DNA of 64,000 nt from Candidatus Avelusimicrobium sp. (GCA_045593365.1 JAZNWO010000060.1:3350-67349); one strand, 5' to 3'. Shown: positions 10,265-54,392, counted from the stretch's first letter. The notes: a model not told the origin generated them from the sequence alone. Numbers and translations are program-made.

Positions 10265-10292
10265 ATCGTACCAAAAAAAAAAAACGAGTCAA
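10265..10292 (-). promoter_or_regulatory. Poly-T spacer promoter P1: TTGACT-CG-T12-GG-TACGAT (16-bp spacer)
   Basis: Read directly; same architecture at 8 pilin loci. Confidence 0.8.
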
Positions 10293-10399
10293 GAGGAAAC
10301 TGCACTTCTTGCCTTTTTCCGGCGAAAAAAAGCAAAAAATATATACAGAAAAGGTGCCCCCAACTTACACTACTACCGCCAGGCTGCACCTATGGAACG

Positions 10400-10957
10400 T
10401 TAGTCTATGTAGTAAAAGAAAGAATCGTTTGAAGTGGGCTTTCCACCTAAACTGCGGCAAATTTGATGGGATACTGTAGCAAAAGATTCCGTCGGTATAA
10501 ATATTCCCCCGCACAACATGGAATGTCGCTCTAAATTATTTCCGGTAGGATCTACTTTTGCATTGAAGAAAAGTATAAAAGGTGAAGACCAACCTTTTTC
10601 CTTGAGCGAAAGACTCACAAAACGGCAATTCGTAGGCTCCGTCGATCCATCGGCACAATGGATGCCCAAGTTGCCATTTTCGTACCAAGCCCATTGTTCC
10701 TGCAATTCTTCTGAAAAGTAGCTTTTATATTGAAAGCGATCCGGAATCAACTCTTTCAATTGCGCATTGGTCGGGTAGTAGCCATTAACGTCATAAAACA
10801 ATTGGACTTGCTGTGCGATGTTGCGCCCCAACGGCAGCAACTTGGCTACCCGCGCACGCCACACGGCCACGCGGTATTGCGGATACGAAACTGCCGCCAA
10901 AATGCCGATTATCAGCACCACTACCAGCATTTCAAGCAACGTAAAAGCTCTTTTCAT
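10400..10957 (-). CDS. Type IV pilin-like protein (no poly-T promoter)
   Basis: [28 protein letters not shown] motif. Confidence 0.9.
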   Translation of the reverse strand: MKRAFTLLEMLVVVLIIGILAAVSYPQYRVAVWRARVAKLLPLGRNIAQQVQLFYDVNGYYPTNAQLKELIPDRFQYKSYFSEELQEQWAWYENGNLGIHCADGSTEPTNCRFVSLSLKEKGWSSPFILFFNAKVDPTGNNLERHSMLCGGIFIPTESFATVSHQICRSLGGKPTSNDSFFYYID

Positions 10958-11025
10958 AGGCCTATTATAACAAATTATACGGACTTTTCCCCCTATTTTA
11001 TCCCCAAAATGTTAAAATAAAATGT

Positions 11026-13539
11026 ATGAGTATTGATAATTTTCAAGAGATTGATAAAAAGCAACAAGCCCGCTGGGAAAAGGAAAATCTTTTTGCCAGC
11101 CCCCGTCTGCCAAAAGACAAAAAGTTTTATTGTTTAGATATGTTTCCGTATCCGTCAGGTGCGGGTCTGCACGTAGGCCATCCGGAAGGTTATACCGCAT
11201 CCGATATTTTAACGCGCTATAAACTAATGAGTGGGTTTGATGTGCTGCATCCCATGGGCTGGGACGCCTTCGGTTTGCCCGCCGAAAACTACGCCATTGC
11301 CACCGGGATTCACCCGGCTATCACTACTCAAAAAAACATAGACAATTTCCGCCGTCAAATTAAATCTCTTGGGCTAGCGTACGATTGGAACCGCGAAATC
11401 AATACCACCGACCCGGATTATTACAAATGGACCCAATGGATTTTCTTGCAACTGTTCAAAAAAGGTCTTGCCTATGAATCCACCGTGCCTATAAACTGGT
11501 GTCCGTCGTGTAAAACCGGGCTTGCCAATGAAGAAGTGTTTAACGGTAAATGCGAGCGCTGCGGCCACCCGATTGAACGCAAAATGCTGCGCCAATGGAT
11601 TTTGAAAATTACCACCTATGCCGAACGCCTTTTGCAAGATTTAGACGGGCTAGATTGGCCTGAAAGTACGCTCCTAATGCAAAAAAACTGGATTGGCAAG
11701 AGCCAAGGGGCAGAGGTAACGTTTGGGCTGGATGGCAGTAATGAAAAATTAACCGTTTTTACTACTCGTCCCGATACGCTGTTCGGAGCGACCTATATGG
11801 TCGTGTCGCCGGAACATCCGGCCTTGGCTCATATCGTAACCGACGCACAAAAAGAAGCAGTCAAAAATTATCAGGCCGCCGCCGCTAACAAGAGCGATTT
11901 GGAGCGCGCTGACTTGAATAAGGATAAAACAGGTGTGTTTACCGGTGCTTATGCCATTAATCCCGTCAACGGCAAAAAAATCCCAGTATGGACGTCTGAT
12001 TATGTGCTGATGGGTTACGGTACGGGCGCGATTATGGCCGTACCCGCACACGATGAGCGCGACTATGCCTTTGCCAAAAAATTTGGTTTGGAAATCATTG
12101 AAGTTATCAAAAGCGAACAGGGCGTGGCCGATGCCGCTTTTACGGGCGACGGTGAACTGATTAATTCCGGCTTTTTAAACGGTCTGCACGTGCAAGACAG
12201 CAAGGCCAAAATGATTGCGTGGCTGACCGAAAAGGGCCTGGGTAATGCCAAAACTACCTACAAGTTACGTGATTGGGTATTTGCCCGCCAACGCTATTGG
12301 GGTGAGCCTATCCCCCTCGTGCATTGTGACAAATGCGGTGTAGTGCCATTACCGGAAGAGCAATTACCGTTGCGCCTGCCCGAAATGAAGAATTTTGAGC
12401 CGTCCGGCACAGGTGAATCGCCACTGGCAAACGCAACCGAATGGTTGCATACCACATGTCCACAATGCGGCGGTCCGGCCTTGCGTGAAACTAACACCAT
12501 GCCCCAATGGGCAGGCTCTTGTTGGTATTATCTGCGTTATATGGACCCGCATAACGATAAGGCTCTCATTGACCCGGAAATTGAAAAAGCATACGGCCCG
12601 GTGGATTGCTACATCGGCGGGGCAGAACACGCCGTACTGCATTTACTGTATGCGCGCTTTTGGCACAAAGTGCTGTATGATTTGGGAGTAGTACACACTA
12701 AAGAGCCGTTTCAAAAATTGCGCCACCAGGGAATGATTTTAGCTTTTTCGTACCGCGATAAATTAGGCGCCTATCACGGTTATGAGGAAATAGATTTCAA
12801 AGACGGTAAAGCCTTCTTAAAAACTACCAAAGAGGAATTATCCCCCATGGTAGAAAAGATGTCCAAATCCAAAAAGAATGTCATTAATCCAGACGACATT
12901 TTAAAAGATTATGGTGCCGATGCTTTCCGTATGTATGAAATGTTTATGGGGCCGTTTGAGGCTAGCAAGCCCTGGGATATGAAAGGCATTGAAGGAATTA
13001 GCCGCTTTTTAAAACGCATTACCGGTTGGAACGAAAGCGTCAAATTAACCACAGCAACCAATCCCAAGGAAATTGAAATTTTGAAGCATAAAACTATTGC
13101 CAAAGTGACAGACGATATTGAAAACTTACGTTTCAATACGGCTATTTCGGCTCTTATGGTACTGTTTAACGAAATCAGCAAACTAGATGCCGTGGATCAA
13201 GATACGTTTGATACTTTTCTTAAACTCTTGCATCCGTTTGCCCCGCACTTGACAGAGGAAATTTGGCAAACTAGCGGACGTCCGGACTTTTTAGTTAAAC
13301 AGCCCTGGCCCGTTGCTGACAATAGTTTAATTGCCCAAGAAATGATTGAAATCGGCGTACAGGTCAACGGGAAAGTGCGTGACCGTATCAAAATAATCGC
13401 TACCGCTTCTAAAGAAGAGCTGGAACAAGCTGCTCGTAACAGCGAAAAAATCCAGCGCTATTTAGACGGCTGCGAAGTAAAAAAAGTTATTATTGTGCCG
13501 GGCCGCATTGTGAATTTCATCGCAGCCCCCAAAAAATAG
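11026..13539 (+). CDS. leuS: Leucine--tRNA ligase
   Basis: [14 protein letters not shown] (HIGH) and KMSKS motifs, CP1 editing domain TTRPDT. Confidence 0.98.
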
Positions 13540-13546
13540 GAGAATT

Positions 13547-14128
13547 ATGAAGAAAATACTTGCTGCAATATGCTGCACACTTTGCTTGGCTGCTTGTGGC
13601 AGCGAAGGATCTTTTTATCGTCCGCAAGCGCAAATCATGCCACAACACATCCGCAAAGTAGCTATCCGCCCGATATTAAACAAGACGGAAATCTTTGCTA
13701 TGGAAGATAAACTATATTTGCAATTGTACGATGAATTTCTGAAAAACGGTACGTACCAAATTGTCAGTGAAAATAACGGCGCTGAAGGAGTCATTGTAAC
13801 GACTATTACCCGCTATTTAAACGTACCTGTCCAATACGACAGCCAGCTCATCCCAACCGTCTACAAAATGGACGTATGGCTGGATATCGTGCTGATAGAT
13901 AAAACCACCAATCAGCCTGTCTGGCGTGAGCCGGCTTTCCTGGGTACACAAACTTATTCTGCCTCAACCTTACCCGGCGGAATAACCGAGCAACAGGCCC
14001 GGGAACTGATTTGGCAGAAACTTTCTAAGGATATTGTGAAACGTACGGTAGACGGGTTTGGCTCTGTGATGAGCGAGGACAAACGCAAGGTAATGCAAAA
14101 CCCTGAGTACACCACCATCACACAATAA
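13547..14128 (+). CDS. lptE: LptE-family lipoprotein
   Basis: Lipobox LAAC; conserved leuS-lptE-holA gene order. Confidence 0.75.
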   Translation: MKKILAAICCTLCLAACGSEGSFYRPQAQIMPQHIRKVAIRPILNKTEIFAMEDKLYLQLYDEFLKNGTYQIVSENNGAEGVIVTTITRYLNVPVQYDSQLIPTVYKMDVWLDIVLIDKTTNQPVWREPAFLGTQTYSASTLPGGITEQQARELIWQKLSKDIVKRTVDGFGSVMSEDKRKVMQNPEYTTITQ

Positions 14129-14129
14129 T

Positions 14130-15305: not shown

Positions 15306-15333
15306 TTGACTCGTTTTTTTTTTTTGCTAAATT
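15306..15333 (+). promoter_or_regulatory. Poly-T spacer promoter P2: TTGACT-CG-T12-GC-TAAATT (16-bp spacer)
   Basis: Read directly. Confidence 0.8.
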
Positions 15334-15415
15334 ATACTTAGGTGTTGGTTGTAAGATATTATTTGTTAACTTAACTTGCGACTAGTCGCAAGGTTACAAA
15401 AAGACAGGAGACAAT

Positions 15416-16093
15416 ATGAAAGAAATAATAAACAAAATCATAAATAAGGTCCATCCTGAGGGATCGTTACTCAGGATCTACAACTTCCTGGGCAGTTGCC
15501 TCTTTGACAGGACAGCACAAAAGCAAGAGACCCTGAATAACAACCCTTCAGGGTGGACTTCTTTTTTAGGTGTGCGGGCATTTACACTCATTGAACTACT
15601 CGTCGTAGTCCTTATTATCGGCATACTGGCTGCTATTGCCCTGCCGCAATATCAAAAAGCAGTATATAAAAGCAGATACGCAACTATAAAATCATTAGTG
15701 CGCAGTATAGCCGACGCACAAGAAGTTTACTACTTGGCAAACGATAGATATGCAGCCTCTTTTGATGACTTGGATATAGATACTCCCGGAGGTTGGAGTG
15801 TGCCAGAGGAGAAAGAAGTAGATAAAGACACACGCCAATTTTCTTGGGGAAAATGTGGACTGGAAACTGCTGTAGCAAACTGTAGCATACCAACTTCAAA
15901 CAGTTATTTGGAATATAACATTTTCTTATCCAAGGCAGAAAATGTACTGGCAAACTATCGGGGAAAAAGTGTTTGTCTAGCCGGAAACGATGATTTAACT
16001 TCTGTTGAAAATCAAATCTGCAAAGCCGAGACTCAACTGTCCAGTCCCTCTTACACGGCTGGCGGACACGCAGTATGGAGATATGACAACTAA
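15416..16093 (+). CDS. Type IV pilin-like prepilin with 55-aa REP-derived leader
   Basis: [25 protein letters not shown]; ACAGGAG RBS. Confidence 0.9.
   Translation: MKEIINKIINKVHPEGSLLRIYNFLGSCLFDRTAQKQETLNNNPSGWTSFLGVRAFTLIELLVVVLIIGILAAIALPQYQKAVYKSRYATIKSLVRSIADAQEVYYLANDRYAASFDDLDIDTPGGWSVPEEKEVDKDTRQFSWGKCGLETAVANCSIPTSNSYLEYNIFLSKAENVLANYRGKSVCLAGNDDLTSVENQICKAETQLSSPSYTAGGHAVWRYDN
15449..15558. repeat. GTCCA..TGGAC palindromic doublet inside the prepilin leader
   Basis: GTCCATCCTGAG..CTCAGGATCT ... AGACCCTGAA..TTCAGGGTGGAC, 110 bp; second copy at 23950-24059. Confidence 0.8.
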
Positions 16094-16391: not shown

Positions 16392-16420
16392 GCGAAAAAC
16401 TACAGTAGCACCAGCAGTTT

Positions 16421-22956: not shown

Positions 22957-23472
22957 CTACTTATAACTCCAACGTATCAAATTATATTTTGCACTTGAGT
23001 CGCCATTCCCCGTCTTACCTGCTTCTGCCTTACAAATCCGCGCACGCCAATCCTGTTGGTCTGTAGTTCCCAAAATAGCACACGAACGCAACCCGCTGGA
23101 CGCATCTTTTCTATATTCCATATTTATCACAGAATCCTCACACCAAGAAATTCCAGCTGTGTTTTTATCTATTTCACAATTTCCCCAATCATAGTAGCGA
23201 TGGTGTTTTTGCAAATCCTGTTCATCCTCTGCTTCTCCGCTGATAGTACCGCCAGGCATATCGATATCCAATTCATCAAAATCAGTGGAGTACCGCCCGT
23301 TTGCCAAATAATACACTACTTGTGCTTGAGAAATTGCTTCCACTAAGTTTTTAAGTCTTACATAGCGTGTCTTTGCTACTGCCACACGATATTGCGGCAA
23401 GGCAATGGCCGCCAATATGCCGATGATAAGAACAACTACTAATAATTCAATCAATGTAAATGCTTTCCTCAT
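22957..23472 (-). CDS. Type IV pilin-like protein (short leader)
   Basis: [28 protein letters not shown]. Confidence 0.92.
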
Positions 23473-23506
23473 TTTTTCTCCTTTCTTTTAATTTCCGGAT
23501 ACTAAA

Positions 23507-23533
23507 ATTATGCCAAAAAAAAAAACGAGTCAA
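23507..23533 (-). promoter_or_regulatory. Poly-T spacer promoter P3: TTGACT-CG-T11-GG-CATAAT (15-bp spacer)
   Basis: Read directly. Confidence 0.75.
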
Positions 23534-23598: not shown

Positions 23599-23730
23599 GT
23601 TGTCATCCCCGAGGAATGTTGTCGGGGATATCCTGCTTATGGGCCGTTGTAAAATAAAGGAGTTTTTTCCTTATTTAATAAACGACACCCATAAGGGAGA
23701 TTCCCGACAGCGACACTCGGGAATGACGAC
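23599..23730. repeat. CGTC-type REP doublet between divergent pilin promoters
   Basis: GTTGTCATCCCCGA..TCGGGGATATCC ... GGAGATTCCCGA..TCGGGAATGACGAC. Confidence 0.85.
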
Positions 23731-23806: not shown

Positions 23807-23834
23807 TTGACTCGTTTTTTTTTTTTGGTAAATT
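23807..23834 (+). promoter_or_regulatory. Poly-T spacer promoter P4: TTGACT-CG-T12-GG-TAAATT (16-bp spacer)
   Basis: Read directly. Confidence 0.8.
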
Positions 23835-23916
23835 ATCTATAGCTGTAGATTGCAAGATATTATTTGTTGACTTGCCTTGCGACTCGTCGCAAGAGTACAA
23901 AAAGACAGGAGACAAT

Positions 23917-24600
23917 ATGAAAGAAATAATAAACAAAATCATAAATAAGGTCCATCCTGAGAATACATTACTCAGGATCTACAACTTCCTGGGTAGTTGC
24001 TTTTATCGCAAAACAACACAAAAGGGAGAGACCCTGAATTACAACATTTCAGGGTGGACTTCTTTTTTAGGTGTGCGGGCATTTACACTCATTGAATTAT
24101 TAGTTGTTGTATTAATCATCGGCATATTGGCGGCGGTGGCGCTGCCGCAGTACCAAGTGGCGGTACTCAAAAGCCGCACCATGGGTTTCATGCCGCTCAT
24201 GAAGGCAATAGAAGAAGCAGAACTTGTGTATCGATTGGCTAATGGAAATTTTACCACTGATTTTACAGAATTGGATATAAGCTTACCCGGCGGTGGTAGC
24301 CTAGAAGAAGAAACATTAGAATCCGGGGTCTACCAAAACAAGTTGGTTTTTTCAAATTTCACTTGTTATTTACAAGACCAAAATCTGCCGGAAGATACCT
24401 ATGTTAAAGATAACTATATTTCGCTGACGTGTTCATACACTAATACAAATGCCCCAATACTGGAGCGGTATTTCTTACGTAACTATTGGTATTGCTGGGA
24501 CGGAAAAAGCGAAATGGGCAGTAAAGTCTGTAAGGCCATTTCCGGCCGCACGACCAACAATGATTCTAGCGGCAAGAAAGGTAAAGGATATACATTCTAA
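23917..24600 (+). CDS. Type IV pilin-like prepilin with 55-aa REP-derived leader
   Basis: Leader near-identical to that of 15416; [25 protein letters not shown]; ACAGGAG RBS (the GTG start in the ORF track lies in the promoter). Confidence 0.9.
   Translation: MKEIINKIINKVHPENTLLRIYNFLGSCFYRKTTQKGETLNYNISGWTSFLGVRAFTLIELLVVVLIIGILAAVALPQYQVAVLKSRTMGFMPLMKAIEEAELVYRLANGNFTTDFTELDISLPGGGSLEEETLESGVYQNKLVFSNFTCYLQDQNLPEDTYVKDNYISLTCSYTNTNAPILERYFLRNYWYCWDGKSEMGSKVCKAISGRTTNNDSSGKKGKGYTF
23950..24059. repeat. GTCCA..TGGAC palindromic doublet inside the prepilin leader (copy 2)
   Basis: Colinear with 15449-15558; stems conserved, loops differ. Confidence 0.8.
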
Positions 24601-27440: not shown

Positions 27441-27908
27441 CTAATACTCCCAGGAAGTATATCCTTCGTTCACTCTTCCCGCTCCGCCTGTTTCTGCTTT
27501 GCATAATTTATTAGTAGGAGCATTTTCATCCTCACTAAAAGCCACGCAAATCCGTTTTCTGGATCGCGCAGCAAAATTTCCGCTTATATGATCATAGTAA
27601 ACCTGATATCCCACTCTTCCCGCGGCGGTTGTAATATTGCACATGGATTGGGTGGCACTGATACCACACCATCGCTTGCTGTCATTAGCGGGAAAATCTA
27701 TATCCAAATCCTCTACGCTGGTTGTGTAGGAACCGTTTGCCAAGTAATACACTTCCTGTGCATTTTTGATAGCGGTAACTAATTGTTTAACTGTAGCATA
27801 TTGCGTTTTAGCCACAGCCATTCTGTATTGCGGCAAGGCAATGGCGGACAAAATACCAATAATTAACACAACCACTAACAGCTCTATAAGCGTGAATGCT
27901 TTTTTCAT
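27441..27908 (-). CDS. Type IV pilin-like protein (short leader)
   Basis: [28 protein letters not shown]. Confidence 0.92.
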   Translation of the reverse strand: MKKAFTLIELLVVVLIIGILSAIALPQYRMAVAKTQYATVKQLVTAIKNAQEVYYLANGSYTTSVEDLDIDFPANDSKRWCGISATQSMCNITTAAGRVGYQVYYDHISGNFAARSRKRICVAFSEDENAPTNKLCKAETGGAGRVNEGYTSWEY

Positions 27909-27931
27909 ATATTCTCCTTTGTTTCTTTTCT

Positions 27932-27964
27932 GTCGTCATCCCGCAGTGTCTCTATGCAGGATAT
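27932..27964. repeat. Single degenerate CGTC-type REP in the pilin 5' UTR
   Basis: GTCGTCATCCCGCA..TGCAGGATAT. Confidence 0.55.
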
Positions 27965-28040
27965 AAGGTTGTTTTCCCCTCCGGCCATAATCCGCATTAC
28001 AGGCTCTTGTGGGGTAACGAGGCCGCGGGGCTACCTCTGT

Positions 28041-28068
28041 AGTGTACCAAAAAAAAAAAACAAGTCAA
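28041..28068 (-). promoter_or_regulatory. Poly-T spacer promoter P5: TTGACT-TG-T12-GG-TACACT (16-bp spacer)
   Basis: Read directly. Confidence 0.8.
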
Positions 28069-38812: not shown

Positions 38813-38893
38813 CTTTCCTCCGCTTGTATAAGAGTATTGTATAAAATATGGACCCAAAAAACTGCTATATGCTGAAAAAAGTGAAGGTAGGCC

Positions 38894-38920
38894 TTGACTC
38901 GTTTTTTTTTTTGGTAAATT
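38894..38920 (+). promoter_or_regulatory. Poly-T spacer promoter P6: TTGACT-CG-T11-GG-TAAATT (15-bp spacer)
   Basis: Read directly. Confidence 0.8.
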
Positions 38921-39002
38921 ATCTGTAGCTGTAAATTGCAAGGAATTATTTTTTGACACCCCTTGCGTGATAGCGCAAGAGTACAAAAAGACAGGAGAAT
39001 AT

Positions 39003-39638
39003 ATGAAAGAAAATAAAAAAATATTTCAAAAAGGATGTCATCCCCGAGTGTTCCTATCGGGGATCTCCCTTATTGGTTATACAAATAAGAGAAAAGCGGA
39101 ATATTCCCGATTACAACCTTCGGCAATGACGGCCCTATTTAATAACGGCTTTACACTCATTGAACTACTCGTCGTTGTCCTTATCATTGGCATACTGGCG
39201 GCGATTGCCTTACCGCAATACAGAAAGGCTGTTATGAAAGCGCGTTTTACACAGCTTAAAGTATTAGCACACAGTTTGGCTCAAGCTGAGGAAGTTTATC
39301 ACCTAGCAAACGGACAATATGCCACCAAGCTGGAATATTTGGATATACAAATGCCCGGAGGACAACTTAATACCAGTGATGATAATCACGCCCGTTATGA
39401 CTGGGGACTTTGTTATTTAGATATAAAAGATTCTGATACGAAAACCAATCAAGTGGCTTGTAAAAATAAAGATATGAACATGGAATATCAAGTACGTTTG
39501 CATTTTGCAAATAACTCCGATACTCGGGTTTGCATCGCATTTAATACAGACTTATCATCCCCGCAAAATCAAATCTGTAAAGGAGAAACGGGCAACACAG
39601 GAACAGATTACACCACCTATACTGCTTGGAACTATTGA
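39003..39638 (+). CDS. Type IV pilin-like prepilin with 49-aa REP-derived leader
   Basis: [25 protein letters not shown]; ACAGGAG RBS. Confidence 0.9.
   Translation: MKENKKIFQKGCHPRVFLSGISLIGYTNKRKAEYSRLQPSAMTALFNNGFTLIELLVVVLIIGILAAIALPQYRKAVMKARFTQLKVLAHSLAQAEEVYHLANGQYATKLEYLDIQMPGGQLNTSDDNHARYDWGLCYLDIKDSDTKTNQVACKNKDMNMEYQVRLHFANNSDTRVCIAFNTDLSSPQNQICKGETGNTGTDYTTYTAWNY
39037..39130. repeat. CGTC-type REP doublet inside the prepilin leader
   Basis: GTCATCCCCGA..TCGGGGATCTCCCTTATTGG ... ATTCCCGA..TCGGCAATGAC. Confidence 0.8.
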
Positions 39639-40286: not shown

Positions 40287-41387
40287 TTATTTAAGTAACG
40301 TAAGCGCTTGCTCTTTACTGGAAATACGTCCCGCCCATTGGAGCTTGCCCATACGCTCCATCGTTGACGAAATTTTACGTCCGTTCAAACCCAAATCACG
40401 CAAATCCCGCCCCCTTAAGAAACAAGGCTCCAACGCGGTACGCTTTAGTCCCGGATACATCGCCCGGATAATATTTTCCTGTAAAGCACTCAGCGGTGCC
40501 GACGGCGATTTTTGGCTTTCAAACACCGATAACGCTCCCAATAGTTCGTGCGTTACCTCTTTAGGCAAATGCAGACTGAGCAAAAATTCTGCCCCGCTGT
40601 CTTGGAGCAAACACGCGCAAATGCCTATTTTGGCTTCTATACTTTTTCCTTTTGCAATTTCCTCGCCCCATTTCAAACCGGGGTATATAAAAGGGTCCAA
40701 TTTATAGCGGTCCATGAGAGCAAAAATATCGCGCACATTTTTTTCCGCCAGGATTTTAACAAACTCCTGCCGCACCCGCTCCCGGGATAAAACAAACGGA
40801 TATTCTTGCGCAATAGCGTCTTGCATCCACTGTTTGGTTTTATTTTCTATTTGCCAGCCGAAACGCCCCGCAAAACGAACCAAGCGGTACAGACGTGTGG
40901 GATCATCGGAAAAACTTTTTTCGTGCAATACTTTCAGCACCCCTTGGTCAATGGCTTTTTGGGCGCCAAACGGGTCATACGGTGCGCCGAAATTCTTGGG
41001 TGACAGACTCAACGCCCAGGCATTTGCCGTAAAATCCCGGCGGAACAAGTCATCTTTGATGGTGGACGGAGTGACTTCCGGCAGTGCACCCGGACGGGCA
41101 TACGTCTCCTTACGGGCCTGTACTAAATCCAATTTAAGGCCGTTTTCCAGCGACACACGGTATGTATTAAATTGGGAAAATTTCCGTTTGGCCCCCCCCC
41201 AGTTGCGTATACAAAATCCAGCTACTGACTCCGGTGATCCCTCAAAGGTAAGGTCCAAATCCTTAGTATCCTTTCCTAGGTAAAAATCCCGGACAGCTCC
41301 CCCCACTACCCAGGCTTTTTGGCCCAGTTTATCGGCGTACTGGCCGATGGTCTTTAAGACTTCCTTGTGTTTTCTTGGTATCATCAT
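40287..41387 (-). CDS. cca: tRNA nucleotidyltransferase (CCA-adding family, class II)
   Basis: VGGAVRD..DLDL, RRDFTANA and DDPTRL motifs. Start inferred at MMIPRK; overlaps the CpXC gene by 59 bp. Confidence 0.85.
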   Translation of the reverse strand: MMIPRKHKEVLKTIGQYADKLGQKAWVVGGAVRDFYLGKDTKDLDLTFEGSPESVAGFCIRNWGGAKRKFSQFNTYRVSLENGLKLDLVQARKETYARPGALPEVTPSTIKDDLFRRDFTANAWALSLSPKNFGAPYDPFGAQKAIDQGVLKVLHEKSFSDDPTRLYRLVRFAGRFGWQIENKTKQWMQDAIAQEYPFVLSRERVRQEFVKILAEKNVRDIFALMDRYKLDPFIYPGLKWGEEIAKGKSIEAKIGICACLLQDSGAEFLLSLHLPKEVTHELLGALSVFESQKSPSAPLSALQENIIRAMYPGLKRTALEPCFLRGRDLRDLGLNGRKISSTMERMGKLQWAGRISSKEQALTLLK

Positions 41388-42021
41388 ATACTTTGGGCGC
41401 TGTGGCGCCATCCCCCTGCATCTGTTCGGCAAAGTGTTTGAGCAACGGGCTCCTAAGTCCCGACTCAAGCACCTTGCGGGCGGAACCGGCAAAGCTTTTC
41501 GCCGTTTCATCCGTCCCGGCTGCCGTATAAAGCGGGAAATTATGTTCCCGTGCCCACTGGGGATCTAAACACGCTACTTTCATCCCCAAGCAGGCGGCAG
41601 CAGCCGCAATTGCTTGTGACTCATCGGTGCGCTGTTGTTCTCGAAGTAGTACTTCCTTTAATTCTTCTAACCCAAACACGCACATAGGCCCCATATCTAA
41701 CCGGACCTGTTTAAGCAAAGTATTTTTAAGCAACTGGTAATCCTGCTGCATCTTAACCATCAGCTGCTTACGTTTACGACAGTTTTTGGCAGAAAATGCA
41801 AAAATAAGCAGCTGCATTTCCTCGTCCAAATAAATCAAATCCGTATCGCCATGAAAGAAGGTTTGGCATTGCGGACAACAAAACAAATTTAGTTCCCCTC
41901 CCAAAACGGCATCTCTAAGCTCCGGATTTTGGGTAACATTGATAAAAGTCCAACGGTCGGCTTCAAAGGCTTCGCAGCCGTTGGGACAAGTTATAGTTTC
42001 GGTTAACTTAATGGATCGCAT
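41329..42021 (-). CDS. CpXC domain-containing protein
   Basis: TCPNGC..WTFINVTQNPELRDAVLGGELNLFCCPQC..LIYLD pattern. Confidence 0.75.
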   Translation of the reverse strand: MRSIKLTETITCPNGCEAFEADRWTFINVTQNPELRDAVLGGELNLFCCPQCQTFFHGDTDLIYLDEEMQLLIFAFSAKNCRKRKQLMVKMQQDYQLLKNTLLKQVRLDMGPMCVFGLEELKEVLLREQQRTDESQAIAAAAACLGMKVACLDPQWAREHNFPLYTAAGTDETAKSFAGSARKVLESGLRSPLLKHFAEQMQGDGATAPKVYDDTKKTQGSLKDHRPVRR

Positions 42022-42194: not shown

Positions 42195-45100
42195 TTACAT
42201 CAAAACTTTGTGGAGTTCCTCCTCGGTCTGTTTGGCATTTTCTTCAGCCTGTTCTGCCGCCTGCTCTGCTTCCACAGCTTTTTCTTGGGCCCGGATGGCT
42301 TTTTCTTCAGCAGCCTTTGCTTTTTGGGCAGCAGCTTCCTGCTTTTCCTTCTCGTGTTCCAAGTATTGGTGAACTCGGATGCCCAATTGACCACTGTTAT
42401 CGTGCGAGCGCATTTCCATAAATTGGTTTGCATACTGGACCGGATTATAAGACTTATAACCATCAAGCGCCAATTTGGTCAAACCCAATAACCCAGAGGG
42501 TAAGCGGACCGGGTATATACCATATAAACCTAACCCGATACTTACACCCAAAGCCGTTATGGGAATCCACAACACGCTTAAGGGACCATTCGCCGGGCGT
42601 ATATTCATCGCTTTCTCGCGGTCTACAAATATACCTTGCAAACCAGGCAAGGCGGCAATACCGAACTGGGACCAAGAGAAGCTAGTCATAGTCATTGTTT
42701 TGAGCTCTTTCGCCCGGGCAGCGGCGGCGGCTTTGTCCATATTAGCCGTCATTTTAGCCACCGTTACTCCGCTTCCTATACGGATATTAGCTAATTTTTG
42801 GAACGATTGGGTCGTATTGGCAGTTCCCAATCCCATCATAATGATACCCGCTATCATTCTAGGATCTAGCTGCAATTTTCCGTTCTCATTTGTTAATGGT
42901 TTTGGATTTAAACCATAGCTCATCAACATTAATCCACCTGCTGTATTAAATCCGTAAGAAAGTCCCAACATCCGTTTATAGGCTATAGCAGGGTCGGCTG
43001 GATTGTCTAAAGCTTTGATGGAAGCTTTGGCACCCAAACGGATTAAAAAAGGCACCGCAGCTGCTGTAATACCCGTCAACATGGCCAAAGTATTAGCTCT
43101 GTTTCCAGGAACACTATTCTTGACAATACCCGTTTGTTCATACATAGGTTTCAAGGATAAGTTCGTTCCTTTGCTAAAAGCTGCCGCTTCAAACCCTGTG
43201 AAAGCAAACGTGGCTGCAGACAAGGGTAATACCTCTGGAGCAAAAGTTGTTTTCCACGCCACGCCCATCTCTTTCCAGAACGGAAATTTTTCGCCTTTCA
43301 GTACAGCACTGGCGCGTCCGATAGAGGAGTCTAATCGGGCAGATTTAACCCAACCCAATACACCCAGTGTTGCTACAGTCAACAGCGGGAAAGCTAAAGA
43401 AAAGTCTGTAGCCGGTTTAGATAATTCCTCTTGCGTTAATTTTTTACCCGTAACAGCCGGCACACCGTGCAACTTGATAGCTCCCCACACGAAAGACGGT
43501 GCCAACAAGAACACAGACCCTAAATTTTTAAACGCCATACTCTTGAGCAGACTGCCACCGCCACCCATACTATCAATCAACACGTTCAAGGTAGAACGGC
43601 TCATGGCAGAGGAAAAGCCAATAGCACCCGCAGTTGCGATTAACGGCCACACCGGGGGAGGATTCGTTGGGTCCAAATTACCGCGGAAACCCATAGCCGC
43701 ACTAAACGCCAACCCAGTGGCTACAGTAGCCAAAGAAACTCTCAATACTTTGGCAGATCCGTATTTCATAATGAACGGAGAAATGGCCGGCGATAACAAG
43801 GACGGCAAATAGGGGAACACAAAGGTAATAGCTGTCTTTTGTCCTTCTGAAATTTGGTCTCTGTAAGTCGTTTCCAACGGAGTAATTAACCCGGAGGAAG
43901 CTGCACTCAAGCTTAAGCCAGACGTCCAAAATAGCGGCAGGATCTTATTTTTGCCGGAACGCAAGGTCAAGTTCAAAGGTCTGTCAAAGGTGTTGGCTTT
44001 AGCCAGCTCTACCAAATTGGTAATCTGCTGTTTAGGTAAGCTAAAGCGCCACAATTTGCTACTGGCCACTTTTTCGCCGTTGCGCATCAGGCTCAAGTAA
44101 TTATCTGCGCCCAACACCAAACTACTGCCGGCTAATCTTAACTGTTTATCGGCCTTGATTAAGATAGGAACAGCGACTTGGCTGCCGTCCGCATGACGGA
44201 TGAATACAGGCAGCTCATCGGTCCAAATTTTTGTTTTACTGCGGCGGCTAGCCCACAATCCGCGCGCCCGATCTGCAAAGGTTGCGCCGACTCCCGCCGT
44301 ACTTTCACCGCTGATAGCAGCTGCCTGGCGGAATGCTTTTACACTGGAATACGGGGATAATTTTAATTCTAAGTTGGTACCCAAATTGGCCTCGGCGGCT
44401 CCGCGGATTAAAGTAGGCAGTTCACTCTTAGAAATATCTACTTTAAAGCTTCCCAAATTGCTCGGTTGGGAAATGCCATCCGTTAATCCCATGAAATAAT
44501 CTTTACCCCGTTTGGTGAAAATAACGCGCTGATAAACCTTTTCGTTTTTAATACCCTTTATACTGGTGTCTACATTGAGCTGTAAGGGCAAGCGGGTAGA
44601 TCCGTTGCTAGCCGGAGCAAATAATGCGCCGGGTACGGTACGGAAAGAAACAGGGGCTTTGTCATATTTCATGGCAGCATACTTGGTAATGTCAGCCGGC
44701 ACACTAATTCCTTCACTGCGCCGCACATTAGCTGCCAAAGCAGTAAATACTTTTTCGCGCTGGGTAAAGCTCAGTTGGGGCAACACATTATCCTTTTCAA
44801 TTAACTTAATGATATTATCGGCCAACATCCCTTTATATTTTTTCTTATTCCCGCCAAATAAAGCCATGGTTTTTTGGGAGAACCAACTACGGTGTGCAAA
44901 TTCCAAATTAGTTTGTGTGGTCACCTCTGCCAAAGCAGTGGAGAACAAACCTTCGGTACTGCTGTTTAGGGTTCCCAAAATCGGAGAAACGACCCCGCGC
45001 AATACCCCAAAATCCACCTTACCCGCAGTTGTATCAATTAAGGCTTGCTTCGGCAAATCTTTTAAATATTGCGGCATAACAATATTGCGGTTTTTCTTCA

Positions 45101-47519
45101 CAGCCGCAGCAAAATCCGCCATTGCTGCTTGGTCGGCACGGCTGTATTTTTTGGAAGCAGCCAAAATTTCTTTGCTCAAGCGGTAGCGGTACTGGGCATC
45201 CTGTTGTCCAAAGAAACGGGCTAATTTATTGGGTGTTTCTAAGGCAAAATTAGTCCTTTCTGTTGCAAGGTTTAAAGTATTCTGCAAAGAAGCCAAGCGG
45301 GCATTTACTGCCGGAGTATTTCCCAACATACCCGTTACTGTATTGGCATTGACAGCCATATTCATATCCGCCCCTAACGTAACGGTCGGTAAAGCAGCCT
45401 GCATTACGGACGGTATCGGCTTAAGCAAGGGCTTCGTATTGGTAAATTGCGGTAACAAATTACTTACCGAGGCTTCCATACCATTTTTGATTTTGGCAGG
45501 AATGGCACGCCACTTGAGCAGTCTTTGGGTAGACTGACTACGCCGCAGGAAAGCAATACGAGCCTCCATGGCCTCCCCTCTGCGCGCCATTTTGGTTACT
45601 TTGTAAAGATCACGACCTGTAACAACCAATTTGGGGGCCGCTTTTATCAGGTCCACCATACATATTACGATGATTGCTATGTCCCCATAAGTACCAATTT
45701 TGAGCCAGGTATCCACCCGGTGCTGGCTGCGTTGTTTAGCTTTATAAATTTCGCTGTCTTGACTGTACATAGTCAAACGCAGCGCCTCATCTAAGTTGGC
45801 CTGATGGTTGGTCTCCCTTTCAAAAATTTCGTAAAGTTTCGTATCAAGCAGCCAACCACTGGCCGAATTCATATCCGTTCCTTTTCCTCTCAAGAACAGC
45901 TGGCGGGCAATGTAGGCGGCTATATTCAGTCCCTTGGCAGAGGCAGCTTGACGGGCCAAAGCTACTTGTTCATCACGGCGGGCCTTATCTGCTTGTATCC
46001 GCGCTTGGTCTATATAAGCTGCACCACTGGAACGCAGTTCGCCATGCGCAGTTTTAACAACCGACGAGCCGGAATATTCTCCGTATTTACCGCTGCGTAA
46101 TGCTCCCACCAAGAAAGGCTTAATACCCGTACAAGCGATACCGGCATCCGTATTCAGCTTAAAGCTTTTTGTAGCATATCCCTCACATTTATTGATTCCG
46201 TAATCCCGTAACAAGGCCAACGCAGAAGGACTGCCGTCTTCGGCCAACATATACGCCACTTCTTCCCACGCATTGGACTGGGCCGGGTCATTAGAAACTT
46301 GCTCCATTTTTTCCGGGAACTGGGCATATTTAGAAACTTCTCCTAAGTAACGTCCTTTTCCGTCATGAATCGTTTTGACCCATGTTCTTATGGAAAGCGC
46401 ATCGGAATCCTCCCGGTTAACTTCTCCTTCCTTTCTGCTGGCTATTTCCAAGATATTACCTATGCGGGTGTATGCCTGCATAGCAAGTAAGGTGCTCACA
46501 CCGGTTAGTATTCCCATAGAAGCATAAGGAGTTACCATTACCTTTTGCACAAATTCGCTTACCAATCTTGCATCGTACTCATCGCCCAAGATACCCAAGC
46601 CGGATACCGCATTGATGGCCACTTGGCAACCGCGGGCAGAAAGTTGCTTGTCATAACAGGAGGTATTTTTTTCTAATTCATCAGCATATAAGGAATGCAA
46701 CATGGCTTTTTCTTCAGGAGTGAATAAAGTGGTCATACGACCGGCAGTCAACAACAAAGTAACGGAAATATTAATTAAATAAGGACGGGCTTTAACGGGA
46801 TTCTTTTTATACAGGGCAAATAATTCTTCTAGTTGTGCCCGGAGTGCTTTCATATCTTCTTCTGCAGCATCTTTACTTTCGGCTTTGGCTTCTTCAAGGA
46901 GTTCTTGATACACAGCCTCTGCATTCTGTTTGGCCTGAGTCCGCCATTTATTAATTTTAGCCCGCGAAACGGCAACAGAAGTACGGATTTGCTTTTCTGC
47001 ATCCTCAGACCAAGCACTCAAAACAGGAGAAGATACTTCATACAAAGCTGCTTGCGTAAGAATAGAGTCTTTTTGTGTGCGGAGCTTCTCTTCATATTTC
47101 TGAAGCTCTTTTTCAGCAGAGGCTATTTGTTCATCTACTGCCGCTTGATACTGCTTCATAAATTGGGCCCGAACATCTTGTTCTTGGTTTAGCAGATTCT
47201 TTTGTTCCGGATGGAGAAAACTCTTTTCCATATCCTCTAAAAATCTAAATTCTGCATCCTCTGAGTAAAAATTTTCTTTCTTTAGGGAGGTGTCCACCCG
47301 TGTGCTTTCCCGCACCGCTTCAAAAGCGCGCTGCTCCACTGCTTGGGCTAATCGTTTTGTGGTCTGCTGTTCTGAAGCAGACAAACCTGAGGATACCTTA
47401 AGAGGTACCAGCGATTGGGCTGCCAAAGGAGCGGACAAATTAATTAACAACGTAACCGACAACATAGAAGCGACTAACTGCTTGCAGAAAGATAACATTT
47501 CTCCGATAGAATATTTCAT
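42195..47519 (-). CDS. 1774-aa hypothetical protein: signal peptide, large helical region and C-terminal MFS-like multi-TM domain
   Basis: Uninterrupted ORF with AxA signal peptide. About 12 hydrophobic segments between ~43950 and ~42500; charged coiled-coil tail. Confidence 0.8.
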   Translation of the reverse strand: MKYSIGEMLSFCKQLVASMLSVTLLINLSAPLAAQSLVPLKVSSGLSASEQQTTKRLAQAVEQRAFEAVRESTRVDTSLKKENFYSEDAEFRFLEDMEKSFLHPEQKNLLNQEQDVRAQFMKQYQAAVDEQIASAEKELQKYEEKLRTQKDSILTQAALYEVSSPVLSAWSEDAEKQIRTSVAVSRAKINKWRTQAKQNAEAVYQELLEEAKAESKDAAEEDMKALRAQLEELFALYKKNPVKARPYLINISVTLLLTAGRMTTLFTPEEKAMLHSLYADELEKNTSCYDKQLSARGCQVAINAVSGLGILGDEYDARLVSEFVQKVMVTPYASMGILTGVSTLLAMQAYTRIGNILEIASRKEGEVNREDSDALSIRTWVKTIHDGKGRYLGEVSKYAQFPEKMEQVSNDPAQSNAWEEVAYMLAEDGSPSALALLRDYGINKCEGYATKSFKLNTDAGIACTGIKPFLVGALRSGKYGEYSGSSVVKTAHGELRSSGAAYIDQARIQADKARRDEQVALARQAASAKGLNIAAYIARQLFLRGKGTDMNSASGWLLDTKLYEIFERETNHQANLDEALRLTMYSQDSEIYKAKQRSQHRVDTWLKIGTYGDIAIIVICMVDLIKAAPKLVVTGRDLYKVTKMARRGEAMEARIAFLRRSQSTQRLLKWRAIPAKIKNGMEASVSNLLPQFTNTKPLLKPIPSVMQAALPTVTLGADMNMAVNANTVTGMLGNTPAVNARLASLQNTLNLATERTNFALETPNKLARFFGQQDAQYRYRLSKEILAASKKYSRADQAAMADFAAAVKKNRNIVMPQYLKDLPKQALIDTTAGKVDFGVLRGVVSPILGTLNSSTEGLFSTALAEVTTQTNLEFAHRSWFSQKTMALFGGNKKKYKGMLADNIIKLIEKDNVLPQLSFTQREKVFTALAANVRRSEGISVPADITKYAAMKYDKAPVSFRTVPGALFAPASNGSTRLPLQLNVDTSIKGIKNEKVYQRVIFTKRGKDYFMGLTDGISQPSNLGSFKVDISKSELPTLIRGAAEANLGTNLELKLSPYSSVKAFRQAAAISGESTAGVGATFADRARGLWASRRSKTKIWTDELPVFIRHADGSQVAVPILIKADKQLRLAGSSLVLGADNYLSLMRNGEKVASSKLWRFSLPKQQITNLVELAKANTFDRPLNLTLRSGKNKILPLFWTSGLSLSAASSGLITPLETTYRDQISEGQKTAITFVFPYLPSLLSPAISPFIMKYGSAKVLRVSLATVATGLAFSAAMGFRGNLDPTNPPPVWPLIATAGAIGFSSAMSRSTLNVLIDSMGGGGSLLKSMAFKNLGSVFLLAPSFVWGAIKLHGVPAVTGKKLTQEELSKPATDFSLAFPLLTVATLGVLGWVKSARLDSSIGRASAVLKGEKFPFWKEMGVAWKTTFAPEVLPLSAATFAFTGFEAAAFSKGTNLSLKPMYEQTGIVKNSVPGNRANTLAMLTGITAAAVPFLIRLGAKASIKALDNPADPAIAYKRMLGLSYGFNTAGGLMLMSYGLNPKPLTNENGKLQLDPRMIAGIIMMGLGTANTTQSFQKLANIRIGSGVTVAKMTANMDKAAAAARAKELKTMTMTSFSWSQFGIAALPGLQGIFVDREKAMNIRPANGPLSVLWIPITALGVSIGLGLYGIYPVRLPSGLLGLTKLALDGYKSYNPVQYANQFMEMRSHDNSGQLGIRVHQYLEHEKEKQEAAAQKAKAAEEKAIRAQEKAVEAEQAAEQAEENAKQTEEELHKVLM

Positions 47520-49283: not shown

Positions 49284-49284
49284 A

Positions 49285-49827
49285 TCAGTATATCTGATAA
49301 GTATCCGCTATATTGGTAGGCGATCCCATACTGGCACAGATTTTTTGCCCAATCTCTGAATTATAAGCCGCACTGGTACAATATATTCCCGCTTTAGTTG
49401 CAGGTGTTATTTCGCTACGGCCATGCTCTAAACGGAAATAAATCTGCAGTTCTGATTTTTCAGCACACAAATTAATTCCCGAATTAAACCCTGGACAATA
49501 ATTGATACGTATTGCACCGCGCGCATCGTTAGTTATTCTAAAATCTGTTCCACAAGCGAACCAACTTTGGTCATCCTTTTCTATTTCTGTAAGGGGTACA
49601 CAATTGCCTGGCAGTTGTACATCCAAATTTTCTATATCTTTTGTGTAGCTGTCATTGTTTAAATGATACACTTCTTGTGCTTGTGCGATATTTTTTCCTA
49701 AAATTAACATCGTCGATACGCGAGTTTTTGCTACTGCCACGCGGTATTGCGGCAGCGCAATGGCCGCCAGTATCCCAATGATTAAAACGACTACCAACAA
49801 CTCTATTAGCGTAAATGCTTTTTTCAT
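49285..49827 (-). CDS. Type IV pilin-like protein (short leader)
   Basis: [28 protein letters not shown]; AAGGAG RBS. Confidence 0.92.
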   Translation of the reverse strand: MKKAFTLIELLVVVLIIGILAAIALPQYRVAVAKTRVSTMLILGKNIAQAQEVYHLNNDSYTKDIENLDVQLPGNCVPLTEIEKDDQSWFACGTDFRITNDARGAIRINYCPGFNSGINLCAEKSELQIYFRLEHGRSEITPATKAGIYCTSAAYNSEIGQKICASMGSPTNIADTYQIY

Positions 49828-49861
49828 AATATCTCCTTTATTTCCTTTTTGGCATACTAAA

Positions 49862-49889
49862 ATTATGCCAAAAAAAAAAAACAAGTCAA
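49862..49889 (-). promoter_or_regulatory. Poly-T spacer promoter P7: TTGACT-TG-T12-GG-CATAAT (16-bp spacer)
   Basis: Read directly. Confidence 0.75.
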
Positions 49890-49949
49890 GGGGTAAGGGC
49901 ACTTTCTCCATTTTTCTGCCGGAAAACGGCTAGTCAAAAATAACATAAG

Positions 49950-50083
49950 GTCGTCATCCCCAAGGATAAAAAAGAGCGGTCATCTCCGAGTGTCTCCGTC
50001 GGGGATCTCCCTTATTGGTGTCATTTATTAAATAAAGAAAAAACTCCTTTATTTTATAACGACTCATAAGCAGCATATCCCCC
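49950..50083. repeat. Degenerate CGTC-type REP doublet; core is the reverse complement of the 23599-23730 core
   Basis: Shares GCTTATG..TAAAATAAAGGAGTTTTT..TTATTTAATAAA.GACACC.ATAAGGGAGAT with the 23.6-kb copy, on the opposite strand. Confidence 0.75.
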
Positions 50084-51438: not shown

Positions 51439-51495
51439 TTTATAACCGCTGGGGGCCGCACATACGCCCCCCTTATTTAAGAGTTAGGAGAAAAT

Positions 51496-52317: not shown

Positions 52318-52454
52318 TTGACAGCCCCTCGAAAGAGGGGCTTTTTTCTGCTCTGGTTTTTGTTTGGCAAGCCAGCGCAGGAAAAAGTCCCCCTATTCAA
52401 AATACGCATAACGGACTTTATTTTAGTACAATAAGAAAAACATACGGAGGCATT

Positions 52455-53177: not shown

Positions 53178-53201
53178 AATTATTTTTCGTGAGAGGAAAC
53201 T

Positions 53202-53765: not shown

Positions 53766-53778
53766 GGTTGTAATTTAA

Positions 53779-53817
53779 TAAAATCCCCCCGCACTTATGT
53801 TTAGGTGCGGGGGTTTT
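53779..53817. terminator. Bidirectional terminator (frr / pilin)
   Basis: CCCCCGCAC..GTGCGGGGG with A/T flanks. Confidence 0.75.
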
Positions 53818-53833
53818 GCACAAAGTATTAATA

Positions 53834-54328
53834 TCAACATTCTGATTGGCTATATCCAAACGATTCCAAACCATAAGAATCTATGGAAACATTACAGCTG
53901 CCATACTGCTTGTCTTTACGTGTCGGATATATTGTGGACTTTAACCAATAATCAGGAGCTCTCGTATATCCGCTTTTCCGTCTTTGTTCTACGACTGCGT
54001 AGCATTCGGAACTAACACAGCTCATGTAAATACATATTTTCTTACTAGTGTCACAAGGCCAGCCAAGGCTGTCATTCTTTGTAAAGGATGAATAATTCAG
54101 ACTTAAGAGATCCCATAAATCATCAGTATTCATTTGAGAGGACGGATATCCGTTCTCCAGGACATACACCTCCAGGGCCTTTTCTAATGACGAGACCATT
54201 TGTAACATTTCACTCACACGGCTTTTTTCCACGGCTTTAGTATACTGTGGCAACGCAACGGCGGCCAGAATACCGATAATTAAAACAACCACTAACAGCT
54301 CTATAAGCGTGAATGCACGACTTTTCAT
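53834..54328 (-). CDS. Type IV pilin-like protein (short leader); only copy with a 17-bp promoter spacer
   Basis: [29 protein letters not shown]; AGGAGG RBS. Confidence 0.92.
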   Translation of the reverse strand: MKSRAFTLIELLVVVLIIGILAAVALPQYTKAVEKSRVSEMLQMVSSLEKALEVYVLENGYPSSQMNTDDLWDLLSLNYSSFTKNDSLGWPCDTSKKICIYMSCVSSECYAVVEQRRKSGYTRAPDYWLKSTIYPTRKDKQYGSCNVSIDSYGLESFGYSQSEC

Positions 54329-54363
54329 ATACTTTCCTCCTTTTTTTATTCCAACATAAGAAA

Positions 54364-54392
54364 AGTGTACCAAAAAAAAAAAAACAAGTCAA
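54364..54392 (-). promoter_or_regulatory. Poly-T spacer promoter P8: TTGACT-TG-T13-GG-TACACT (17-bp spacer)
   Basis: Read directly. Confidence 0.8.

Follow-up and report, generated by a model that had tools for sequence, protein, structure and literature searches.

Elusimicrobiaceae are widespread and almost unstudied gut bacteria, and a genomic stretch from one of them raises the question of how a dispersed set of surface-protein genes may be controlled. In 64,000 nucleotides (nt) of Candidatus Avelusimicrobium sp. (GCA_045593365.1 JAZNWO010000060.1:3350-67349), the whole of which is referred to here as the window, eight solitary type IV pilin-like genes are each preceded by a predicted promoter in which the spacer between the -35 and -10 hexamers is filled almost completely by a run of 11-13 T. 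Such a run may be a site at which slippage re-tunes the gene behind it, or it may be a structural part of a particular class of promoter. A preliminary description of the window had favoured the former and had proposed that each pilin is tuned independently and stochastically. The sites were re-derived here, the genes behind them were characterized and the module was followed into related species. From the sequence, the pure T-run spacer probably lets the expression of each gene drift up or down through DNA slippage.

Eight T-run promoter modules in the window

TTGACTYG followed by T9, with at most one mismatch, was matched at eight positions in the 64-kb window: 10292(-), 15306(+), 23533(-), 23807(+), 28068(-), 38894(+), 49889(-) and 54392(-). 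Dinucleotide shuffles of the window contained a mean of 0.01 sites, and none of 100 shuffles gave eight. A list of all homopolymers in the 64 kb agreed with the preliminary description that nothing but the eight spacer T runs reaches 11 nt; next in length came a C9 run, at 41192-41200. With 0.01 sites expected and no other homopolymer of this length, chance is therefore excluded as the origin of the eight sites.

Read in the coding direction, the modules follow the consensus C-TTGACT-(C/T)G-Tn-G(G/C)-hexamer, with T runs of 12, 12, 11, 12, 12, 11, 12 and 13 and spacers of 16, 16, 15, 16, 16, 15, 16 and 17 bp in order along the window, so that 11-13 of the 15-17 spacer bases are T. The -10 hexamer is TACGAT once, TAAATT three times, CATAAT twice and TACACT twice. 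TGn abuts the hexamer in all eight copies, and a purine stands 7 nt after the -10 in all eight. Motif, lengths, hexamers, spacers and TGn were all recovered exactly as first described.

Five modules lie on the minus strand: TTGACT-CG-T12-GG-TACGAT at 10265-10292 (16-bp spacer, T run 10273-10284, predicted +1 G at 10258), TTGACT-CG-T11-GG-CATAAT at 23507-23533 (15-bp spacer, T run 23515-23525, predicted +1 A at 23500), TTGACT-TG-T12-GG-TACACT at 28041-28068 (16-bp spacer, T run 28049-28060, predicted +1 G at 28034), TTGACT-TG-T12-GG-CATAAT at 49862-49889 (16-bp spacer, T run 49870-49881) and TTGACT-TG-T13-GG-TACACT at 54364-54392 (17-bp spacer, T run 54372-54384). On the plus strand are TTGACT-CG-T12-GC-TAAATT at 15306-15333 (16-bp spacer, T run 15314-15325, predicted +1 A at 15340), TTGACT-CG-T12-GG-TAAATT at 23807-23834 (16-bp spacer, T run 23815-23826), which is a paralogue of the modules at 15306 and 38894, and TTGACT-CG-T11-GG-TAAATT at 38894-38920 (15-bp spacer, T run 38902-38912), which is divergent from gcvT.

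The window copies have the features of a sigma-70-type extended -10 promoter, namely TTGACT (five of the six bases of TTGACA), a spacer of 15-17 bp, TGn, TAnnnT or CATAAT, and the purine. They also have those of a promoter simple-sequence repeat, a pure mononucleotide tract placed where its length sets promoter geometry. TGnTAnnnT sites in the window fell into two groups, those with 11-12 T in the preceding 13 nt (the six TAnnnT promoters) and those with eight or fewer, the CATAAT pair standing outside this pattern. The T-run module was absent from the housekeeping promoters within the window.

The downstream genes encode type IV pilin-like proteins

Each site precedes a pilin gene, as had been claimed: all eight downstream open reading frames (ORFs) contain the prepilin motif (G/A)↓FTL(I/L)E(L/M), which is also present in a ninth ORF, and every one of the eight matches Pfam PF07963 N_methyl at 25-32 bits, above the cut-off of 21.2. 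A profile of 60 homologues matched solved PilA and PilE chains with E values of 1e-14 to 1e-12 (PilA 9laa at 1e-14; PilE gonococcal and meningococcal). The AlphaFold2 model of the 27441-27908 product (mean predicted local distance difference test score, pLDDT, 93.6) has a 52-residue N-terminal helix (residues 7-58) and a beta-sheet of five or six strands, and its best Foldseek matches, 1ay2, 5vxx and 8tj2, are all pilins, including gonococcal and Myxococcus proteins, with modest TM-scores of 0.36-0.42. Four cysteines are invariant. The products of the eight genes are classed as type IV pilin-like proteins because of the N_methyl motif, the profile matches to PilA and PilE and the modelled fold. 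They belong to a very large family, with at least 5,444 relatives at E<=1e-10 among 8,000 candidates scored; exact-protein look-ups for two of the window pilins returned no identical record.

The minus-strand genes are 9417-10139 (240 amino acids (aa); G↓FTLIELL preceded by an in-frame leader of 55 aa; 5' untranslated region (UTR) of ~119 nt, strongly structured), 22957-23472 (171 aa, short leader MRKA↓FTLIELL), 27441-27908 (155 aa, short leader, UTR of ~126 nt), 49285-49827 (180 aa, short leader) and 53834-54328 (164 aa, short leader). Those on the plus strand are 15416-16093 (225 aa, 55-aa leader, 76-nt UTR with the hairpin CTTGCGACTAGTCGCAAG), 23917-24600 (227 aa, 55-aa leader) and 39003-39638 (211 aa, 49-aa leader). 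The ninth pilin-like gene, 10400-10957(-), lacks a T run, its promoter being of the ordinary kind, and provides an internal contrast; the association between pilin gene and T-run promoter in the window is thus eight of nine. All nine ORFs are full length, each with a Shine-Dalgarno (SD) sequence and a start codon, and no promoterless, 5'-truncated silent cassettes were seen among them. The pilin genes are solitary, wedged among dxs, leuS-lptE-holA, a FeFe-hydrogenase cluster, gcvTHP, ruvC and rpsB-tsf-pyrH-frr, and none of the pilus machinery components PilD, PilB, PilC and PilQ is encoded within the window.

The module is conserved in gut Elusimicrobiaceae

The nearest relatives of the window are ruminant-gut Elusimicrobiaceae metagenome-assembled genomes (MAGs), at ~80% nucleotide identity. 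Window k-mers were found only in bovine gut and gut metagenome runs; two public runs contain the window species, with 6-11% of sampled words in common and low-depth, fragmentary contigs, and the window-specific flank GGTAGGCC+TTGACTCG+T9 had no match in the metagenome scan.

The module itself is far more widely distributed. A scan with TTGACTYG+T10 of one genome per bacterial species gave at least 110 stretches, and ~90% of those listed were gut Elusimicrobiales/Elusimicrobiaceae MAGs of rodents, ruminants, birds and humans. As the motif recurs in well over 100 independent assemblies, produced by different assemblers, an assembly artefact was rejected. A second, independent scan covered metagenome contigs, accepted runs of T8 and longer and permitted interruptions, and yielded 52 pure tracts and 69 interrupted matches. 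The scans beyond the window bore out a discrete promoter class of gut Elusimicrobiaceae tied to pilin genes.

The 113 complete motifs among the matches listed had T10 in five cases, T11 in 11, T12 in 86, T13 in 10 and T14 in one, and the share of T12 was 76-79% across both scans. In the interruption-tolerant scan all 34 pilin-linked matches were pure (T12 27, T11 five, T9 one and T8 one), and none of the 69 interrupted matches was linked to a pilin gene. Short alleles (T8-T9) and long alleles (T13-T15) are genuine and occur at recognisable Elusimicrobia promoters, and 21-24% of copies are non-modal in consensus assemblies. The run is thus held to pure T, with lengths that cluster at 12 and a genuine tail.

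In an alignment of 105 copies the conserved positions were the -35, the T run, TGn, the -10, the C before the -35 (76%) and the purine 7 nt after the -10 (87%, never C, T-flanked). Outside -35 to +1 the flanks were unrelated in most copies, across more than 20 species, and 17 variants of the -10 hexamer were found among copies in which the T run was still pure. Because only promoter positions are conserved, these data argue for a functional promoter kept by selection and not for a recently copied repeat, and the purine is taken as the signature of a transcription start. In a rodent-gut species the pilin-promoter core was present at ~19-20 times single-copy depth, corresponding to roughly 20 near-identical T-run promoters per genome.

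Of 89 pilin genes at related loci with enough upstream sequence, 70 had the pure motif, ~8 more had T12 with a variant -35 and nine had neither. Counted from the promoter, 62 of 81 (~77%) precede a pilin gene, and behind 17 of the 19 non-pilin promoters the product has a signal peptide at its N terminus and is often Cys-rich. The module is pilin-dominated and not pilin-specific, because about one-fifth of its copies precede other signal-peptide proteins; the earlier view of a pilin-tied promoter holds in that the class is discrete and serves mostly pilin genes, but not as an exclusive association. The 28-nt signature can be used to find such genes and promoters in metagenomes.

Departures from the pure T run were also observed. 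A divergent pilin gene of Ca. Avelusimicrobium (L126, ~340-395, minus strand) has TTGACA-AATC-A12-C-GATAAT, with poly-A in a 17-bp spacer. Upstream of the gene for P0102 in L137-L139 (184-677) a pilin gene is called as overlapping ORFs of 72 and 109 aa and is probably frameshifted; its promoter has a T-rich, interrupted 17-bp spacer, TTGATA-AGTTTGTCTTTGTTTCT-TAGAAT, which resembles a decayed or stabilised T run. The natural series from T8 to T15, together with the rare A12 and interrupted versions, bears on whether the tract is there for its mutability or for its structure.

The T run could also be read as the U-tract of an intrinsic terminator or insulator against read-through, with the -35 in the 3' arm of the hairpin. 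Three window copies can form AGTGAAGG-TAGG-CCTTGACT followed by CG-T12, and GC-rich palindromes often lie just upstream of the -35. However, over 109 copies the 40 nt ending at the tract folded at -7.6 kcal/mol, only marginally better than the -6.6 kcal/mol of shuffled sequences, and the last paired base was usually 1-8 nt from the T run. A terminator would also leave the conserved TGn-TAnnnT and +1 purine unexplained. We consider it highly improbable, and on the marginal fold difference it was rejected.

Tract length differs between near-identical sequences

The preliminary description had suggested comparing lengths at orthologous loci; such comparisons were made in related species only, from assembled contigs or consensus sequences. 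In two samples, L118 (T12) and L120 (T13), one added T was the sole difference over 1,804 aligned nt. Duplicates in L103, with 98% identical flanks, had T12 and T10. Contigs from different samples encoding exactly the same pilin gave T12, T12, T13 and T12 for P0115, to which L118 and L120 belong, and T12 three times and T13 once for P0035. At a site with T12 in L128, L129 and L130, L132 had T13. Among promoter pairs with 130-nt flanks at least 80% identical, nine of 19 differed in length, about the same proportion as random pairing gives.

Locus L001 of the rodent-gut species has unique flanks. In the same strain, sampled from four rats of one study, X8 had T12, and in rat X7 both flanking contigs carried a 1-nt deletion inside 941-971, the 31 nt that they share, which implies T11. 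At two other loci of the rodent species (L013 and L086) the flanks are themselves repeats, and the T11, T12 and T13 variant contigs were not assignable to a locus.

The tract is by far the most mutable site of these regions, and T12 is the usual population state. Polymorphism of the tract between populations of the same strain, which is the mark of a contingency locus, was found in related species. The expectation that lengths would differ at orthologous loci is thus upheld by L118/L120 and X7/X8, and qualified by the unchanged length in ~30 of 33 observations, which are considered below.

Proposed slippage tuning and the points against it

We propose that each module is a self-contained sigma-70-type extended -10 promoter that would drive one solitary type IV pilin-like gene and, in relatives, other secreted, Cys-rich proteins. 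T12, which gives a 16-bp spacer, would be the length maintained by selection and most likely the fully active one. During replication, slippage at a pure run of 11-13 T would by far outpace point mutation, and individual promoters would therefore drift reversibly to T11 or T13 and occasionally across T8-T15. The strength of sigma-70 promoters depends on spacer length; an altered tract would change the spacing and the rotational register of the -35 and -10, and transcription of that one gene would be re-tuned, most likely downwards. With about 20 such promoters in the rodent species and eight in 64 kb here, a population would consist of a mixture of cells with differing profiles of pilin and surface-protein expression.

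The predicted behaviour is that of a per-gene slippage rheostat, biased towards ON and centred on T12, and not of a clean ON/OFF switch; we give this reading a probability of roughly 0.55. That T12 would be the optimum and not an OFF state is argued from the sharp, symmetrical peak, because OFF alleles need no common length. The converse arrangement, with T12 as OFF and T13 (17 bp) as ON, was considered unlikely since OFF alleles would not pile up at one length. A contingency role is favoured by the restriction of the module to genes for surface and secreted proteins, by the 21-24% of non-modal copies and by the near absence of interrupted spacers. We infer that the module is an active promoter, that length alters expression and that mutability itself has been selected. 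X28, the one true RNA run, has a contig whose first base is L001:971, 2 nt past the -10 (predicted +1 at 976), with no coverage upstream, and the same run also has promoter-containing contigs; runs X19 and X20, labelled RNA, have even, DNA-like coverage. Elusimicrobium minutum is reported to be without sigma-54 (PMC3162934), which is consistent with pilin genes on sigma-70-type promoters.

A number of observations weigh against slippage tuning. About 30 of 33 orthologous sample-level observations had the unchanged modal length and about three a non-modal one. The two promoters of P0045 were T12 in all of six samples, as was that of P0076 in three, and L001, with nine samples in this tally, kept T12 in strains 2.5-4.5% diverged and in eight other samples. 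L001 contigs from X5, X6 and X15 end exactly at the tract boundary, and such breaks hint at within-sample mixtures of length but might also stem from slippage during library preparation. The purity of the T run is equally explained if the polymerase or a regulator needs the T's, and TGn may make the promoters tolerant of a 1-bp change in the spacer. On these points the tract looks like a conserved element with occasional excursions and not like an element of free ON/OFF switching.

Alternatively, the T12 run might serve the structure or the recognition of a strong kind of promoter reserved for exported-protein genes, slippage being an unavoidable and mildly harmful side effect. It could form a rigid, over-twisted A-tract by which the two hexamers are held in register, act as a T-rich -16 region for polymerase contact, as in Campylobacter and Helicobacter promoters, or bind a class-specific regulator. 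This would accommodate the sharp T12 mode with its roughly symmetrical shoulders, the constancy of most orthologous comparisons, the conservation of every T across species with fully diverged flanks, and the G that stands at either end of the tract, with TGn after it, in nearly all copies. The 17-bp spacer of L126, which has A12 where the other copies have T12, fits a requirement for duplex structure, and a T-rich stretch ending in TGn upstream of the -10 is reportedly the normal promoter architecture of Epsilonproteobacteria. A structural element would not account, however, for the restriction of the module to pilin and secreted-protein genes or for its absence from the housekeeping promoters of the window. 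The 21-24% of non-modal copies, which include T8-T10 alleles without a workable spacer, and the change of length within otherwise identical DNA (L118/L120) also stand against it, and interrupted spacers of the correct length are almost absent, though they would be expected if only geometry mattered. Purity and the tight mode accord with both readings; we take the structural one as the main rival and as the less likely of the two.

The rheostat can be extended to the whole genome, as a contingency regulon of at least 20 independently slipping T12 promoters per genome, conserved across the family, each serving one pilin-like or secreted surface protein, so that populations would be combinatorial mosaics. 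This wider proposal is put forward tentatively, at somewhat less than even odds. If true, no larger repertoire of promoter repeats would be known, and phase variation would be described for the first time in this animal-gut phylum. A slip-prone promoter before nearly every solitary pilin gene is a candidate mechanism of population-level surface heterogeneity, with possible consequences for attachment, phage evasion and avoidance of host immunity.

Recombination and the sharing of modules

Related strains also differ by exchanges at their pilin genes. Strain X10, which is ~4.5% diverged, keeps the T12 promoter but has 692 unrelated nt in place of the entire pilin ORF L001:974-1565, with the left breakpoint immediately behind the promoter. 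L125:200-631, on a contig from another sample, contains a pilin coding region 93.5% identical to that of the window gene 27441-27908 (27590-27928) behind a promoter and UTR of the type found at the 38894 locus (38892-39011). Modules of promoter/UTR and ORF are thus shuffled between related strains, and recombination also shapes the pilin repertoire, as the ORF replacement in X10 and the promoter/UTR exchange in L125 show. It is possible that the conserved promoter core serves as a breakpoint for swapping pilin ORFs between loci and strains. The preliminary description had held that the pilins vary without silent-cassette gene conversion; no promoterless silent cassettes were seen, but the claim was too strong in view of the ORF replacement and promoter/UTR exchange in relatives.

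Concerted evolution could in principle account for the T run itself, if pilin genes spread as promoter-containing cassettes that recombine between the promoter core and the conserved 5' coding region and carry the tract along. A stretch of 18 nt upstream and a 76-nt UTR are common to three of the window promoters, and ~20 loci in each genome of the rodent species have one identical core; the replacement in X10 right after the L001 promoter and the combination in L125 of a 27441-27908-type pilin with a 38894-type promoter/UTR are also what such a process would leave. In most copies, however, from more than 20 species, the flanks beyond -35 to +1 are unrelated, the -10 has 17 variants while the T run stays pure, and the same module stands before unrelated protein families. 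Concerted evolution accounts for spread and not for maintained length and purity, and as the origin of the tract we regard it as improbable.

Leaders, untranslated regions and border elements

Four of the eight pilins have an in-frame N-terminal extension of 49-55 aa between a strong SD and ATG and the G/A↓FTLIE cleavage site, which is atypical for type IV pilins. The leader-coding extensions lie at 9975-10139(-), 15416-15580(+), 23917-24081(+) and 39003-39149(+), and are built from short palindromic DNA elements, for example GTCATCCCCGAATGTTTTTATCGGGGATC, which is translated as HPRMFLSGI. In the related proteins P0029 and P0032 the mature pilins are identical and the leaders unrelated. Repeat elements thus appear, from sequence, to have been inserted into the cleaved-off part of the pilins. 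Small GTCATCC...GGAT(GAC) hairpins are nearly restricted, within the window, to the borders, UTRs and leaders of pilin genes (23602-23629, 27410, 27935-27962 and 49953-49960; in leaders at 10109, 15452, 23953 and 39039), and may be elements resembling repetitive extragenic palindromes (REP) or miniature inverted-repeat transposable elements (MITE) at cassette boundaries.

A 76-nt 5'UTR family is common to 15334-15415, 23835-23916 and 38921-39002 of the window and to L125:235-313. In its hairpin the stem is kept and the loop varies (CTTGCG-ACTAGT-CGCAAG, CTTGCG-ACTCGT-CGCAAG and CTTGCG-TGATAG-CGCAAG); ACAAAAAGACAGGAG follows, and the element had no Rfam match. The long 5'UTRs at 10140-10258(-) and 27909-28034(-) are 73-83% conserved in reindeer and yak Elusimicrobiaceae MAGs (L094, L089, L067, L063, L036, L032, L102 and L083), and the 125-nt leader of the 10139 gene has a fold energy of -50.5 kcal/mol. 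No Rfam match was found for the long 5'UTRs of the 10139 and 27908 genes, which could form a second regulatory layer downstream of the T-run promoter. One tRNA was the only known RNA family in the window, and none was found in L125, L142 or L152.

The pilins P0014 and P0062, from two other species, are without a T run and have in common a conserved leader of ~270 nt, which begins with TATACT(A/G)TA..TACAATTTAA..CTGTTTTTGGAAGCGTTTAAGAAACG (L142-L144, 370-700, and L152-L156, upstream of the pilin gene), had no Rfam match and may be an undescribed leader RNA. In the rodent-gut MAG the promoters of non-pilin secreted proteins (L013, L030 and L086) have a repeated element of ~110-150 nt lying 100-200 nt upstream, 87-92% identical between loci and in tandem in L013.

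Other features of the window

The longest homopolymer of the window other than A or T runs, the C9 at 41192-41200 (G9 in the coding sense), lies ~103 codons from the start of 40287-41510(-), a gene of the poly(A) polymerase / CCA-adding enzyme family, in which it is a possible frameshift-prone site. Pfam gave no match at E<=0.001 for an ORF of 1,774 aa at 42195-47519(-). A gene with a phage-lysozyme domain and a gene with an ORF6N domain, at 54983-56441, lie a short way past the T13 pilin promoter and may be prophage or mobile remnants.

Comparison with known systems

Full-text searches found no literature linking Elusimicrobia with phase variation or with pilin promoters, in keeping with the earlier statement that nothing of the kind had been described for Elusimicrobiota pilins. 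The E. minutum genome reportedly contains a greatly expanded pilE family.

Pilin in Neisseria itself varies by gene conversion from pilS to pilE and not through a promoter tract. The window does not match this pattern: conversion from cassettes of the Neisseria type was not seen, because all pilin ORFs are complete and each has its own promoter. Other Neisseria meningitidis genes, porA, opc and fetA, have poly-G or poly-C spacers, in which a change by 1-2 nt sets the expression of an outer-membrane protein at a high, medium or low level. These place the homopolymer inside the -35/-10 spacer, as here, but are single genes, whereas the T-run promoters serve a dispersed repertoire.

In Campylobacter and Helicobacter, housekeeping promoters are said to have a T-rich -16 region followed by TGn-TAtAAT. 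There, as here, a T-rich stretch ending in TG stands directly upstream of the -10; that stretch is shorter, impure and genome-wide, whereas a pure T12 between a good -35 and a -10 marks a discrete gene class here. The Helicobacter pylori adhesin gene sabA has a poly-T tract at a sigma-70-type promoter, with graded expression and a length that varies in vivo, from T5 to T22 (PMC4081817). It shares with the present module the poly-T, the type of promoter and a surface-protein gene. Its tract, however, lies upstream of the -35, phases UP-like elements and tolerates T5-T22, lengths that are also common, whereas here the tract is the spacer itself and mostly T11-T13, a narrowness that belongs with the points against slippage tuning given above.

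The closest system in biology is that of the Bordetella pertussis fimbrial genes fim2, fim3, fimX and fimN, in which the length of a promoter C-stretch alters transcript level and single-base differences occur between strains; fimX with C7 gives ~fourfold more transcript than with C8 (PMC1891110). In both, several fimbrial or pilin-like genes each have a promoter homopolymer. In Bordetella the tract lies between the site of the activator BvgA and the -10 and the products are chaperone-usher fimbriae, whereas here it separates a consensus -35 from an extended -10 and the products are type IV pilin-like.

Closest in design is the vlp family of Mycoplasma hyorhinis, which is said to have poly(A) in the -35/-10 spacer, with tract length tied by experiment to the ON (17) and OFF states. 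There too a multigene family of surface proteins has a spacer-homopolymer promoter for each gene, with slippage gene by gene. The vlp products are lipoproteins and length there is linked to expression, whereas the genes described here are pilin-like, number ~20 or more copies per genome, have the module family-wide with T12 tightly modal, and are known from sequence alone. Spacer homopolymers on families of surface-protein genes were thus already known; what stands out here is the number of promoters, tens in each genome, their conservation throughout a family of gut bacteria and the tight mode at T12.

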